Shown: piece after piece, positions 53,809 to 64,000 of the stretch
Layout of the letters: the number at the start of each line of letters is the position of its first letter
Position numbering within the stretch: position 1 is the first letter of the stretch
DNA from: Squalus acanthias
Lineage: Eukaryota
DNA: 64,000 nt
Assembly: GCA_030390025.1 (NCBI GenBank)
Contig: JASTWF010000034.1
Location: 2,790,001 to 2,854,000 of the forward strand
Direction: 5' to 3'
Notes under the pieces: model-generated
Database searches by the model: none
Told to the model about the DNA's origin: nothing
The model's input: the letters and a program-made list of their open reading frames with translations, nothing else
Made by a program: the position numbers and the translations under genes

Positions 53809-54889
53809 GCCTTGTCAGGTAAAGATTAAAGCACACTGTACACTCTCCCATCAAACACTCCTGCGGCAGTTACAGCACGGGTTAGATAGAAAGTAAACAC
53901 CCACTACACAGTCCCATCAAACACTCCAAGGACAGGTACAGCTAGGTGTAGATACAGAGTAAAGCTGCCTCAATACCGTCCCATCAAAAATCCTAGGGCA
54001 GGTACAGCACGGGCTAGATACAGAGTAAAGCTACCTTCACATTCTCCAATCAAACACTCCCCGGACAGGTAGAACCTCAGACTTTTGCCAGGGAGAGAGA
54101 TGGAGTCGGTGGACACATAGCATGTATAGTACCAGATAAGAGTGAATCTTTCCCTTTTTCTCAATGTTTACTGCACATGTACAGGAGCTGACACTGAGAC
54201 ACACACAGTGTACAGTACCAGACGGGAGTGCATCATTCCCTTTTACCTGGTGTGTACTGTACATGTACAGGAGCTGACACTGAAACACACATGGTCCGTA
54301 CTGTACCAGATAAGTGTGTATAGTTCTCTTTTAGAAAAGCACTCCTAGGGCAGGTACAGTACGGTTAGATACAGATTAACGCTCCCATACACTGCCCCGT
54401 CCAACTCTCCCAAGGCAAGTACAGCAAGGGTTAGATAAAGATTTTTTCCCAAACACTGCCCCATCAAACATTCCACAGCATGTGCACCCCATGTTAGATA
54501 TAGATTAATACTCCGTCTACACTGTCTCATCAAACACTTTGTGGGCAGTGTTGTGGGAGCTTTCCTTTGTTTCGAACACTCTCTGTACTTACCCTGAGTA
54601 TGTTTGGTGGGACAGTTTAGTGGGAGCTTTATTCTGTCCCTCACCCGTGCTACACCAGCCCTGGTATAGTCTCTCTTGTGGATCTCAGCACTCCCATTCA
54701 GTGCAGTGAAGAGGGAATCCTGCCCATCTGTCAACAAGTGAGAGGAGGCTTAGAAGGTGACGGGATTGGTGGTAGGGTTGAAAGAACACATCCGATAGAT
54801 CAATTTGAAACATAAATGGATGTTATTTCCAGAAATATCAAAGTATCCAGAAAATACAGTCGTTCTTATGCTCTGTCATAACTTTCTCT

Positions 54890-56140
54890 GTGTACAGTCT
54901 GTCCCTCTCCCAATGTGGAGTCTGACTCTGTAACAAGTGTCCCTGTGTACAGTGTGTCTCTCCCAGTGTGGAGTCGGGCTCTGTAACAAATGTCCCTGTG
55001 TACAGTGTGAGTCTCTGATGGTGTGGAGTCGGACTCTGTAACAAGTGTCACTGTATAAAATTTGTGTCTCTCCCAGTGTGTAGTCGGACTCTGTAACAAG
55101 TGTCCCTGTGTACACTTTGTGTCTCTCCCAGTGTGTAGTCGGACTCTGTGACAAGTGTCACTGTGTACAGTATGTGTCTCTGCCAGTGTGGAGTCGGACT
55201 CTGTAACAAGTGTCCCTGTGTACAGTGTGGAGTCGGAATCTGGAGCAAGTGTCCCTGTGTAAACTGGCTGTCGCGCATAATAATGAACATGCCCGCCGCA
55301 CATATTCATTAAAATGGCCCGAGCCCGTGTCACTTAAAATGGCCGCCGCTCATATCACTTAAAATGGCCGGCGTACTTCTTACATAAAATAGCTGCCACG
55401 GATATCACATAAAATCGCTGCCACGAGTAGATGTCACTTAAAATGGCCGCCACAGATAGATATCACTTAAAATGGCCACGGAGATGGATAACGCTTAAAA
55501 TGGCTGCCGTAGATAGATACCTCTTTAAATGGCCGCCACTAGTAGATATCACTTAAAAAACCACCGTGCATATCATTGAATCGTCAAATTCATCGCTCTT
55601 CACGGAAACAGAAGCATTGTTCTAGAATTAAAACAAGCCTTTACACAGGTTCACGTTGATAACTTTAATTTCCACTCGCGGTGGGGAGCATCTCTCTCCC
55701 GCACCACAGGTTAACGTGTTTGTGTCACATTGGAAGGCCAGGGCTACTTTAAACCTAGGCTCTCCCAGTGTCTCTCCCAGTGTGGAGTCGGACGCTGTAA
55801 CAAGTGTCCCTGTATTATGTGTGAGTCTCTGCTGGTGTGGAGTCGGGCTCTGTAAGATGTGTCCCTGTGTACAGTGTATCTCTCCCAGTGTGGAGTCGGA
55901 CTCTGTAACAAGTGTCCCTGTGTACAGTGTGTGTATCTCCCAGTGTGGAGTCGGACTCTGTAACAAGTGTCCCTGTGTACAGTGTGTGTGTCTCCCATTG
56001 TGGAGTCAGACTCTGTAAGAAGTGTCCCTGTGTACACTGTGTCTCTCCCAGTGTGGAGTCAGACTCTGTAAGAAGTGTCCCTGTGTACAGCTTGTGTCTC
56101 TCCCAGTGTGGAGTCGGACTCTGTAACAAGTGCCCCTCTG
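54890..56140. repeat. ~55-bp minisatellite in two blocks (54890-55260 and 55760-56140)
   Basis: Unit cccagtgtggagtcggactctgtaacaagtgtccctgtgtacagtgtgtgtctct. Confidence 0.92.
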
Positions 56141-56164
56141 TTTTCTGGCCACCGCGCATATTAT

Positions 56165-58048
56165 GAATATTTTGTATCAGTCTTTACAGTAGAGGACACT
56201 AAGAATATCCCAACACTGGACAAACAGGGGGCTATAGGGGGAGAGGAGCTAAACACGATCAAAATCACTAAGGAAGTGGTACTCGGTAAAATAATGGGAC
56301 TCAAGGCGGATAAATCACCTGGACCTGATGGCTTACATCCTAGAGTCTTGAAGGAAGTGGCGGTAGGGATTGTAGATGCATTGGTAATAATTTTTCAAAA
56401 CTCCCTGGATTCCGCTAAGGTCCCGGCAGACTGGAAAACTGCTAATGTAACACCCTTATTTAAAAAGGGCAGTAGACAGAAGGCTGGTAACTATAGACCG
56501 GTTAGCCTAACATCTGTGGTAGGTAAAATTTTGGAGTCCATTATTAAGGAAACAGTAACAGGACATTTGGATAATCATAATTTAATAGGACAAAGTCAGC
56601 ATGGTTTTACGAAGGGGAAGTCATGTTTGACAAATTTGCTGGAGTTCTTTGAGGAAGTAACATATAGAGTGGATAAAGGGGAACCAGTGGACGTAGTGTA
56701 TTTAGACTTCCAAAAGGCATTTGACAAGGTGCCACACAAAAGATTATTGCTTAAGGTAAAAAATCACGGGATTGGGGGTAATATTCTGGCATGGATAGAG
56801 GATTGGCTATCTAACAGAAAGCAAAGAGTTGGGATAAATGGTTCATTCTCAGACTGGCAATCAGTAACTAGTGGTGTTCCACAGGGGTCAGTGCTGGGTC
56901 CCCAACTCTTCACAATCTATATTAACGATTTGGAGGAAGGGACCAAGTGTAACATATCAAAATTTGCAGATGATACAAAGATGGGAGGGAAAGTAGTGAG
57001 TGAGGAGGACATAAAAAACCTGCAAGGGGACATAGACAGGCTAAGTAAGTGGGCAGAGATTTGGCAGATGGAATACAACACTGGAAAGTGTGAGGTGATG
57101 CACTTTGGCAGGAAAAATCCTAGAGCAATTTATTATCTTAATGGCAAGAAACTGGAGAGTACTGAAGTGCAAAGGGATCTGGGGGTCCTGGTGCACGAAA
57201 CTCAAAAGGTTAGTATGCAGGTGCAGCAAGTGATTAAGAAGGCAAATGGAATGTTGGCTTTCATTGCTAGGGGGATAGAATATAAAAATAGGGAGGTATT
57301 GCTTCAGTTGTACAAGGTATTGGTGAGACCGCACCTGGAATACTGCATACAGTTTTGGTGTCCTTACTTAAGGAAAGACATCCTTGCTCTCGAGGCAGTG
57401 CAAAAAAGGTTCACTCGGTTAATCCCGGGGATGAGGGGGTGGTCATATGAGGAGAGGTTGGGTAGATTGGGACTCTACTCATTGGAGTTCAGAAGAATGA
57501 GAGGCGATCTTATTGAAACATATAAGATTGTGAAGGGGTTGGATCGGGTGGATGCGGGGAGGATGTTCCCGATGACGGGTGAGACGAGAACTAGGGGACA
57601 TAGTCTTAGAATAAGGGGCTGCTCTTTCAAAACTGAGATGAGGAGGAACTACTTCACTCAGAGGGTGGTAGGTCCATGGAATATGCTGCCACAAAAAGCT
57701 GTAGAAGCTACAACATTAATTACATTTAAAACAGAAATAGACAGTTTCCTAGAAGTAAAGGGCATTAAGGGTTACGGGGAGCGGGCAGGAATTTGGACAT
57801 GAGTCTAGGTTCGGATCGGTCATGGCCCTGTGGGTAGTGGAGCGGGCCCAGGGACTGTGTAGCCTGATTCTGCTCCTATTTCGTGTGTGCAATTCTGTTA
57901 GATGCAGGAGATGGTTCTGTGATAGATAGTAGATTGGCGGTTAGGATCAGATCAGCCATGATCTTATTGAATGGCGGAGCAGGCTCGAGGGGCCGATTGG
58001 CCTACTCCTGCTCCTATTTCTTATGTTCTTATGTTCTTATGTTCTTAT
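56165..58048 (+). mobile_element. Young 5'-truncated CR1 with uninterrupted RT domain
   Basis: Open to 57802 with KSPGPDG, QHGF, GVPQGSVLGP, FADD; same subfamily as 37330-41220; tail (ttcttatg)3. Confidence 0.95.
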
Positions 58049-60869: not shown

Positions 60870-62517
60870 TATAAACATATGAACAATGACGGACAATTAA
60901 AGACCATTTGGTCCATCGAGCCTGTCCCACACAATTGAGGTCCCTTGTGTATCACAACATATACGCTCCACCCCACCGGAAACCATGTGATATCCTGGGA
61001 GAGGCGAAAAACGCAGGCCAATTTGGGGAAAATAAACCAGGGAAATTCCTCTCTAACCCATCTAGGCAATGGAAACTAATCCAGGAGATCACTCTGGCCC
61101 TGAATTCCCCTCCGTACCTGCCTTCTGTAAGAGGTGATCTCCGCCCCAGCCAGAAGCAGGTCCAGCTCTCGCTTCAAGGAATTCAGTGTTCCGCATTCAC
61201 CACATGAGTAGGCAGCCTGTCTGGGAAACGAACCACCTCCTGACATCTAATCTAGATGTAGACTCATACAACTTCAGTTAGTGAGCCCTGGTCCTGCCTA
61301 ATTGAAATAAACTGCCAGCTGGTACAAAATCTATTCCCTTCATTAACTTATAAACCTCAATCAGATCTCCGCTAAGTCTACGCTTCTCTAAGGTAGAACA
61401 TCCCAACCCTTTTAGCCTTTCTTGATGACTAAGACACTTTACACTGGGAATTAGTCTAGTGGCTCCTCCTCTGTACCCTTTCCAAAGCCTCAATATCACC
61501 CACCATGTGAGGAGATCAAAACTGGGCACAATATTTCAAGTGTGGCCTGACTAATGTCCTTTACAAGGAAAAACAGTATGCCTCGCCCTGTACTCGATTG
61601 TCCTATGGATACGCCCCAACACCCTATTTGCTCTAGCTATCGCTGCACAGCTTTGCTCATGTACCTTTAAGGATGTATGCACTATCTGTAATGCCTTTCC
61701 CTGAAGGGTGTATGAATGTTTAGCATTTGCCCTTCCCACATGCATAACACTGCACGTATTTAAGTTATACATCATTTTCCAGTCTTGAGACCAATCACCC
61801 AACAGATTAAGATCTGGCTGAAGCGGACGATCATCATCTACAGTTCTAACACTCGCACAATTCTTGGTATCATCTGCAAATTTTCAGATTGTGCCCCCAA
61901 CACCTACATCCAGATCATTAATAAAAATAGTAAAGCGCAACACTCCCAACACTGATCCCTGTGGGACACCACTGATGACCGGTCTCCAAACAGTTCCCAA
62001 TCCATCTATAACTACTTTTTTGCCTACGTCCTGCCATCCAGTTCTGAATCCAGCTCAATATATTACCACTAATACCAGAGTATTTGATCTTATAGAGAAG
62101 CCTCTTATGCGGTACCTTATCCACCAACTTTGTAACTTCTTCAAAAATACAATTAGATTTGTAAGACATGACCGCCTTGTTATGAAGTAATGTTGGGTGT
62201 CCCTAATATGACCCTCTCTATCCAAGTATTCATATATTGCATCCTTAATGATTCCTTCAAGCATATTACCTATTACTGATGTTAAACTAATGGGCCTATA
62301 CTTACCCGGGTCTGTCTTGTCACCTTTTGTAACGATGTGGACTACATTAGCCTCCTTGCAGTCTACAGGAACCATTCCAGAGTGCAGTAAGGTTTTAAAA
62401 ATACAGGCTCGGGTCCAGCAAAGCACATGCCCCATCTCCCTGAGGACTGTCGAGTGGATACCATCCGGCCCGGCTGCTCCATCTATTTTCAAGTTCTTAA
62501 TTATTTCTAAAACAATC
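60870..62517 (-). mobile_element. CR1 of a distinct subfamily, interrupted by the Gypsy LTR
   Basis: AAGPDGIH, YRPISLTSV, LEKRRLSGDL; different 3' UTR. Confidence 0.85.
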
Positions 62518-62715
62518 TGTGTTTGGTAACACAATACAGCTTCCTGTGACTCGAACTTTATTGCATCACTTCCTGTGATTAGTCCAGGATAAATACTGGA
62601 CTGATCAGTTGGATCCTGGAGAGGCATAGAGTAAGACCTCTTTTGTATGTAGCACCTTTTTAGTTGATTAAAGCTTACTTTAAGTTCACCACGCGTAAGG
62701 CTCATTCTTACGACA
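62518..62715 (+). mobile_element. Putative 5' LTR (~200 bp) of a Gypsy element
   Basis: TGT...ACA termini between the CR1 break and the gag leader; ATTAAA at 62667; partner LTR lies outside the window. Confidence 0.6.
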
Positions 62716-62793
62716 ATTTAATCAACTTTGAAAAACTTCGCACTCAAACTTTTTAGACGAACTCGGAACTAAGGATCCAGGGAATCACCCATC

Positions 62794-64000
62794 ATGGAAA
62801 ACATCCTTAAACCATCGCGTCTTGACTTGGACCCAAACACCCCAGCAGCGGTAAGGTGTGGAAACACTGGTATCGCACGTTTGACAATTTTCTCGAATAT
62901 TGCAATGCTGATGGTGACTCAAAGTTGCGGATACTCATCAACTGTGTCACCCCGAATGTATTTCAGTATGTGGAGGAATGGGGCAGTTACGAGAAGGCAA
63001 TTCGGACGCTTAAAAGGCTATATACTAAGACACCGAATGAGGTCTATGCCAGACATCTACTAGGTACAGCCCAACAAGGGCCGGAGGAATCCATTGATAA
63101 ATTCCTCCAAGAGCTTCGCAGACTTAGTATGGACTGTAACTTTCAGGCGGCCTCAGCTGAGCTGTACCGTGAAGAAATGATCCGTGATGCTTTCATCTGC
63201 GGGCTTGCCTCCCCATTTATACGCCAGCGTCTACTGGAAAGTAAGACACTTGAGCTTCAGAGAGCTTATGACATGGCTTGCTCTCTAGATCTGGCAAAAA
63301 GAAATGCAGACCTTTATACAGTGCCCAGACCTCGGTCTGCTGCCTTAACTACAGTCAGGCAATTTAAGAGGCCACAGGTGAACTCTATTAGGGAGGACTT
63401 TATCCCTGACGATCAATCTGATGACTTCACTGATGAAGAGGATGATGACCCCACTGTGGCAGCCTCTTGGCAATCTAAGAAATGCTTCTTTTGTGGTGAT
63501 GAGTTTCACCCTCGGAAATTCTGCCCTGCTCGCAATGCGTTTTGCAGTCATTGCAACAAAAAGGGTCATTTTGCAAAGGTTTGCCTATCAAGAGCCTCTA
63601 CGAGGGCTTATCAAGCTAAGTCCTACCGAACTGCCCCGGTAAGGGCCTATCAAGATGTTCCGGCTAAAATCTATCGTGCTTCCTCTCGGGTTTTCTCTCG
63701 AAGAAACACACCTAGAGTTTCAGCCACTCTTTGTGCAACGACACCAATTACAGCTGCTTGTCCTCAGAACCTATTCCATGCAGCTACAAAAGCATCAATT
63801 AATGGACATACTTTAGATGCCTTAATTGACTCAGGTAGCACTGATAGTTTCATTAGGGAACAGATTGTTGCAGAGTTAAAGCTACATGTTTTCCCATCGG
63901 ACCAGGCAATTGCGATGGCTCAGTCATCACTTAATACCAGAATTTCTGGCTTTTGTATGGTTGAAATAACACTTAATGGTCACAGGTATCCCTCCACCCG
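62794..64000 (+). mobile_element. gag-pol: Ty3/Gypsy gag-pro ORF running off the window; one frameshift near 62851
   Basis: MENILKPSRLDLDP, then a frame open from 62859 to the end by manual translation: WKHWYRTF, IRDAFICG, CFFCGDEFHPRKFC, CSHCNKKGHFAKVC, LIDSGSTDSFI. Confidence 0.92.

Follow-up and report, generated by a model that had tools for sequence, protein, structure and literature searches.

The far end of the 64,000-nucleotide stretch of DNA analysed here (the window) is best explained as the 5' end of a young Ty3/Gypsy element, from a lineage that is widespread in animals and lacks a tRNA primer. An arm within its 5' LTR pairs with a site lying one base beyond the LTR end and, as judged from the comparison of sequences, this pairing is a real, lineage-wide RNA feature. 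Self-priming is its best reading, with cleavage and priming steps that we infer from those of Tf1; taken as a whole, including these steps, tRNA-free priming by the element's own 5' R arm appears probable. Somewhat short of an even chance, in our view, is the broader proposal that this animal Gypsy lineage, represented by flatworm, nematode, snail and crustacean proteins as well as by the present vertebrate-like genome, arrived at tRNA-free priming on its own, separately from Tf1/sushi, with a single duplex acting both as primer and as 5' poly(A) mask and with an adjacent RCC...GGY hairpin, rather than the distance from the cap, guiding the RNase H cut.

Repbase mentions self-priming for some animal Gypsy families. 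A search of the open literature, with subscription journals and Repbase outside its scope, turned up no description of self-primed members of this lineage, and the consulted portions of PMC3601003, PMC5006619 and PMC6934838 name no self-priming animal element outside the chromoviruses. According to excerpts of PMC7175516, PMC6317226 and bioRxiv 10.1101/2022.12.06.519325, self-priming has been experimentally shown only for fission-yeast Tf1 and is regarded as characteristic of the Tf1/sushi chromoviruses. If true, a second, non-chromovirus Gypsy lineage with another fold would make the loss of the tRNA primer a repeated solution. Such elements would escape control by tRNA fragments, and LTR finders requiring a tRNA site would under-call them. 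In addition, a 70-nt RNA containing the predicted cut site could serve as a test system for RNase H cutting of an RNA:RNA duplex.

Boundaries and coding capacity of the element

The element is inserted into host sequence that contains, on the reverse strand, a decayed LINE reverse-transcriptase frame fragment (62055..62520; Pfam RVT_1, E 3e-5), which we take to be CR1-like. Assembled contigs from four public runs were aligned to 62400-63200 in order to place the boundaries of the LTR. Host LINE copies in runs X10 and X3 match up to 62520 and then diverge, while in contigs of the 3' LTR (X10, X8) position 62524 is directly preceded by a G-rich polypurine tract and TG. Both observations place the LTR start at about 62520-62522, not at 62518 as the earlier note had it, and the LTR length at about 194 instead of 198 bp. 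On the opposite side, loose contig ends with unlike flanks begin behind 62715 (seven in run X10, one in X19), so that the LTR 3' end proposed at this position is borne out; relatives with both LTRs end alike, in CA followed by one base and TTTA. The 5' LTR thus delimited lies on the forward strand (62522..62715) and ends in ...TACGACA, and no second LTR copy was found within the 64-kb window. An imperfect inverted repeat of 15 nt (62576..62607, forward strand), whose centre is the sole TATA-like word of the LTR, ATAAATA (62589-62595), may on the basis of its sequence represent the promoter region.

Runs X3, X19 and X8 contain a sister LTR variant (62564-62715) that differs by 12 letters and one gap; its sole change inside the hairpin that follows the pairing arm affects the loop position 62679. 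At least half of the words of the element (62518-64000) were present in 20 of the 24 listed public runs, which come from 11 studies and seven coded organisms, and the fraction of element words ranged from 0.57 to 0.84 in runs X1-X20 of these seven organisms. This distribution may reflect a recent burst shared by close species, or horizontal spread. Elsewhere in the window, a 576-codon open LINE reverse-transcriptase frame (56072-57802, forward strand) constitutes a younger copy of the LINE type found at the insertion site, and a tandem minisatellite-like repeat (54800-56100) gives rise to long spurious reading frames on both strands.

Downstream of the LTR, the gag ATG and first codons occupy 62794..62855 (forward strand). 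About 20 codons of the ATG frame (from 62794) match relatives, and the Gag-protease homology then carries on in another frame, open from 62826 to the window end. Because the homology leaves the ATG frame for the frame open from 62826, this gag copy is frameshifted, the shift falling within 62794..62855; the frame break looks private to this copy. The downstream reading frame had been described as nearly intact, which holds for the long frame open from 62826 but not for the ATG frame, which breaks and stops at 63063. The Gag-protease frame proper (62856..64000, forward strand) comprises a capsid-like region, two CX2CX4HX4C knuckles at 63483-63584 and the aspartic protease DSG at about 63828. 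It is open to the end of the window, which falls inside the protease; RT, RNase H, integrase and the 3' LTR lie beyond.

Pairing of the LTR arm with the primer site

In this copy, the LTR arm AGTTGATTAAA (62662-62672, forward strand), the candidate self-primer, is the exact reverse complement of TTTAATCAACT (62717-62727, forward strand), the putative primer-binding site, which a one-base spacer (A, 62716, forward strand) separates from the LTR end. The perfect complementarity reported for these two 11-mers was therefore correct, as was the statement that no TGG-type tRNA site follows the LTR end, and no further Watson-Crick pair is possible on either side of the 11-bp duplex. Dinucleotide shuffles of the LTR produced a complement of at least 11 bp within five bases of the LTR end in 6 of 20,000 cases, and matches of at least 11 were found at 4 of 8,815 positions of the window and at 1 of 1,376 positions ending in ACA. 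The pairing probability of arm and primer site was about 0.9 in local folds with four assumed RNA starts from 62620 to 62662; since the duplex was kept for all four, folding does not place the RNA start. Two properties of this copy were counted against self-priming, namely the energy of the duplex (-9.8 kcal/mol), among the weakest of the families, and the unexceptional fold of the whole 139 nt (z -1.6). No variant letters were listed in either arm among the run contigs, with 11 variant places elsewhere in the LTR; unvaried arms are expected by chance about half the time and were hence not counted as support.

The main evidence comes from the comparison of related elements. Scans of metagenome and genome contigs yielded 82 loci (the best 80 of 200 matches, plus 2), which fall into 30 families by their gag DNA when the window is counted. 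Where both LTRs are present, CA closes the LTR and is followed, after one base, by TTT(A/T); a strict 5-bp target duplication was present in 8 of 22 loci with LTR pairs. When no boundaries were used, an inverted repeat of at least 11 bp was detected just before gag in 47 of 69 loci versus 4 of 371 control positions; this count leaves out 11 loci with too little upstream DNA and 2 with no gag start, and several of the 69 loci are redundant, as the same insertion was seen in 7 of the 8 locus pairs checked. A duplex of 9-19 bp joins the LTR arm to the site that begins one base beyond the CA of the LTR in 25 of the 30 families, including the window, with the arm's 3' end nearly always reading TAAA. 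The initial count, based on the best copy per family, gave a duplex of at least 9 bp in 21 of 25 families with upstream DNA, and four families were added later. Among the families without the duplex, three have little upstream DNA, while two (L052 and L067/L068) do have it and yet fail in register, a fact counted against self-priming. No family with a duplex (0/25) carries TGG at the primer position.

Pairing was kept with different letters from family to family, which upholds the self-priming signature that had been proposed from this copy. The primer site pairs on average over 14.2 bp with its own LTR versus 4.9 bp with the LTRs of other families, and the own LTR is strictly the best partner in 18 of 21 families and tied in 2. 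The earlier note had suggested aligning family copies for covariation of the two arms. With anchors chosen so as not to favour the outcome (CA-N-TTT(A/T), and (T/A)AAA plus a GCCT-like word, positions 5-11 being ignored), positions 5-11 were paired in 144 of 154 cells, as compared with 83 ± 6 for permuted partners (highest 107 in 2,000 permutations), a contrast that gives no strict probability because the families are related. Of 79 loci, the strict anchors recovered 51, belonging to 22 families, and the 28 missed were counted against the reading. At positions 14-16 the pairing rate is down to 0.63-0.69, and from position 17 on it is about 0.3. The first four bases of the primer site (TTTA) are nearly invariant, and positions 5-16 vary with the family and track its own LTR. 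Within families, one locus (L009) combines a single change in both LTR arms with the matching change in the primer site, whereas unmatched changes in the primer site (L006, L011) or in the arm (L016, L023) count against self-priming. In the family of L012-L015, L020, L021 and L034, primer-site position 14 is paired in some copies and unpaired in several young ones, hinting from these sequences that only about 13 bp may be needed there.

These data bear directly on two other explanations. Fortuitous pairing of an A-rich poly(A) signal with T-rich leader sequence could be invoked since both arms are AT-rich and the folding z is only -1.6, but the cross-family controls (repeats before gag, own versus foreign LTRs, real versus permuted partners) and the shuffles of the LTR refute it, and we give it practically no credence. 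It is also improbable, though less strikingly so, that a host RNA, such as a tRNA fragment, is what the site binds, the LTR complement being secondary. The nearly invariant TTTA start would speak for it, and half tRNAs are used by some copia lineages according to an excerpt of PMC6317226; however, positions 5-16 are family-specific and follow the own LTR, TGG is missing from 25 of 25 families, and Rfam gave no match in 62450-62900. A comparison confined to the tRNAs of the window (none) and of all loci (one) gave a best match to the site of 5 nt, which does not weigh on either side. As a separate observation, locus L020:5028-12630 contains a lineage member nested in another LTR element whose primer site starts with TGG, as in the tRNA type.

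Poly(A) hexamer, junction hairpin and the proposed course of priming

The geometry of the duplex is constrained at one side only. Its 5' limit varies, giving lengths from 9 to 19 bp (11 in the window), and the arm's 3' end alone is fixed. The base that follows the arm is unpaired with the spacer in 21 of 21 families, the spacer being A in 24 of 25. In the window, the last six bases of the arm form the poly(A) hexamer ATTAAA (62667-62672). AATAAA or ATTAAA lies within the arm in 15 of 21 families, such a hexamer occurring elsewhere in the LTRs once in 4,125 nt, and the arm hexamer is nearly always the sole one over the final 200 nt of the LTR. Six families without a canonical hexamer still pair, with forms that include CATAAA, TGTAAA, AGTAAA, GTTAAA and GGTAAA.

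The association of arm and hexamer could also mean that the duplex solely hides the poly(A) signal of the 5' LTR to permit read-through, priming being carried out by something else. That the hexamer of the arm is nearly always the only one near the LTR end would agree with such a role, and so would the position of the complement, which follows the LTR at the 5' end and allows masking there alone. Nevertheless, masking alone does not require the complement to lie exactly one base after the terminal CA, as it does in 21 of 21 families, nor does it account for the pairing kept in the six families devoid of the canonical hexamer. Moreover, the gag ATG lies as near as about 17-26 nt after the LTR end in several families, which leaves no room in them for another primer site. 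Masking as the only function is consequently unlikely in our judgement.

Immediately after the arm, the window shows a 5-bp hairpin, GCTTA/TAAGT (62673..62685, forward strand), whose first base is the one directly 3' of the arm. Junction hairpins of at least 4 bp (range 4-7 bp) starting right after the arm were found in 19 of 25 families, compared with 4.9 families, and 13 at the highest, in 5,000 shuffles keeping the first four bases; moving the start by 2-8 bases left stems in 4-10 families. The hairpin reads GCCT...AGGY in most relatives, the window having T-A where most have C-G, and position 4 is occupied by several pair types among families. The earlier note had mentioned neither the hexamer within the arm nor this hairpin. 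A second small hairpin, CGTAAG/CTTACG (62694..62712, forward strand), lies near the LTR end and is without enrichment across the lineage.

Under self-priming, the 5' R arm would fold back in the element RNA and pair with the site one base beyond the LTR end, and the short hairpin beginning at the base after the arm could stack on the duplex of arm and primer site. By analogy with Tf1, the element's RT/RNase H would most likely cut at 62672|62673 (62672/62673, forward strand), and the arm's 3' end, again following Tf1, would start minus-strand synthesis, first across the spacer and then across the CA that ends the LTR. The minus-strand DNA of about 44 nt might then transfer to the 3' R via the stretch from the cut to the poly(A) site. 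As the poly(A) hexamer usually lies within the arm, this duplex would also conceal the signal in the 5' LTR, whereas the one in the 3' LTR would stay accessible.

Since the two LTRs carry the same arm, sequence does not distinguish which copy primes, and a different geometry can be envisaged in which the 3' R arm, from the same molecule after circularization or from a second packaged RNA, pairs with the site, the cut occurs after TAAA and the 3' end of the long RNA acts as primer. The likeness of arm and hairpin in both LTRs, the fixed 3' end and variable 5' end of the arm, and a start at the arm without a promoter word would be compatible with this arrangement. Yet it would presumably occupy the 3' R needed for the first strand transfer, the 5' arm lies just 24-87 nt from the primer site and pairs with it with high probability in local folds, and Tf1 uses the 5' copy in the portions of the literature consulted. 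We therefore give the 3' R geometry little weight and favour priming by the 5' arm. The longest loop between arm and site (87 nt, in L061) contains a second copy of the primer site, apparently a local duplication.

Regarding the transcription start, just 2 of 21 families have a TATA-like word some 30 nt ahead of the arm, its lack in the other 19 being counted against self-priming; in the window this word lies 73 nt before the arm. The RNA may start at the arm or upstream of it, and the start at about 62662 deduced in the earlier note is possible, being neither supported nor refuted by these data. Runs X3 and X19, which may derive from RNA, also contain flanking sequence and give no indication of the start or of the poly(A) site. 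Contigs L025 and L031, which begin exactly at the arm, were considered as a start-site hint and discarded, as the 55 nt that separate this point from the LTR end fit an assembly word length. A primer made by splicing was likewise dismissed on inspection by eye, since the arm is contiguous in DNA; antisense donor-like words (YTTACS) occur in 7 of 22 LTRs, at no fixed place.

Lineage placement and comparison with known elements

Membership in Ty3/Gypsy is indicated by the LTR, Gag and protease of the window, together with the PR-RT-RH-IN order (hmmscan of P0001 and P0003) and the LTR pairs supplied by its relatives, Ty3 Gag-Pol being the best solved relative. A search with the Gag-protease of the window retrieved full-length proteins of about 1,200 aa with 34-37% identity, and an RT-RNase H search gave 1,828 matches among 8,000 scored candidates. 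Named relatives among the matches listed come from Trichuris, Sparganum, Paragonimus, Trichobilharzia and Biomphalaria, and a Gag match from Macrobrachium. Members of the lineage encode gag and pol in one frame of about 1,200 aa, measure about 4.0-4.5 kb, and have LTRs of 180-310 bp and 5-bp target duplications. Two CCHC knuckles are present in 90 of 91 full-length relatives as well as in the window, GPY/F near the C-terminus was found in 0 of 91, and the RT active site reads YxDN instead of YxDD in 75 of 91 (set P0001-P0134). No chromodomain was detected by hmmscan in P0001 and P0003 or in the Pfam lists of 120 relatives among the matches listed. A literature search for YxDN in Gypsy elements gave only a BEL/Pao paper, the accessible text of searchable literature supplements yielded no RT words of this lineage, viral contigs contained no relative of the element, and the ESM Atlas gave only generic names for lineage proteins. 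Saci-2 (CCCH) and CsRn1 (CHCC, tRNA-Trp) were rejected as candidates on their Gag motif, as given in partial sources.

In an RT tree, a check that the earlier note had called for, a branch with support 100/99 sets the RTs of the relatives against six other Gypsy RTs that carry outgroup labels assumed by us and include no named chromovirus or Cigr-1 RT. The window Gag falls among the relatives in a quick tree with long outgroup branches, being 44-56% identical over 150 aa. As the window contains no RT, its placement rests on Gag, and the link to the RT clade is made via the relatives.

In Tf1, the primer consists of the first 11 bases of its own RNA, and RNase H cuts between bases 11 and 12 (excerpts of PMC7175516 and PMC5341516); Tj1 from S. 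japonicus has been proposed to prime likewise (excerpt of PMC4600332). The Tf1/sushi group is defined by self-priming, the pretzel and the chromodomain in the part of bioRxiv 10.1101/2022.12.06.519325 available to us, although for Tf1 itself sources differ, the chromodomain being scored 'no' in a table of PMC2774666 and 'yes' in that preprint. As in Tf1/Tf2 of Schizosaccharomyces pombe, Tj1 and Tf1/sushi, to judge from these partial sources, our lineage has no tRNA site and its primer site is complementary to the LTR, and the duplex of this copy measures 11 bp, as in Tf1. In contrast, the lineage has two CCHC knuckles where an excerpt of PMC2774666 gives none for Tf1 and one for Sushi-ichi, it lacks GPY/F and the chromodomain, its RT is mostly YxDN, its duplex spans 9-19 bp with an arm overlapping the poly(A) hexamer, and a local junction hairpin takes the place of the three-duplex pretzel. 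Neither component of a pretzel was enriched across families, the stem at the LTR end scoring 97 versus 108 ± 6 in shuffled sequences and the loop versus leader pairing -210 versus -207 ± 12 kcal/mol, with 113 of 300 shuffles as low. The two extra duplexes needed by Tf1 were not found across families, which was counted against self-priming. Hence, by the present analysis, the element would work like Tf1 and yet depart from Tf1/sushi in four membership features: two CCHC knuckles, no chromodomain, no GPY/F and no pretzel. The suspicion that its double-knuckle Gag is unlike the Tf1/sushi type is thereby substantiated.

By the description of its markers rather than by sequence, the element resembles Cigr-1 from Ciona intestinalis (GyDB Ty3/Gypsy branch 2). 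In Cigr-1, too, one frame of about 1,200 aa lies between short LTRs. Both share two CCHC knuckles, ILG, the integrase after RNase H, the loss of GPY/F and the lack of a chromodomain and of env, as far as the excerpt of PMC2774666 describes Cigr-1 and with the pol features on our side taken from the relatives. This combination is also common to some Osvaldo elements. The protease flap of Cigr-1 is listed as TANG (GANG type) in a partial source; this word was not seen in the window or in P0001-P0005, where inspection by eye gave MA(S/T/Q)x at the place at which the flap probably lies. Excerpts of PMC6238403, PMC8556966, PMC3670739, PMC8220671 and PMC2582038 place the Cigr-1 clade in molluscs and annelids, with Biomphalaria glabrata among the reported hosts, and the relatives identified here include multi-copy B. 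glabrata proteins.

With the TAR lineage of plant Ty1/copia (Houba, Osr-1), our lineage shares self-priming predicted from sequence outside Tf1/sushi, though TAR belongs to another superfamily and to plants; the excerpt of PMC6317226 predicts self-priming for Tcn1 and TAR copia. The double CCHC Gag is common to our lineage and to the Mag cluster (A, B and C clades; SURL). Similarity to P0006 and P0007, presumably Mag-like, is weak, with 25-27% identity in Gag and about 27-33% in RT, and the long branch with support 100/99 also excludes L082. This locus, as well as L081 and P0044, corresponds to Gypsy sequences filed under bacterial bins or names, which most likely represent animal host DNA.
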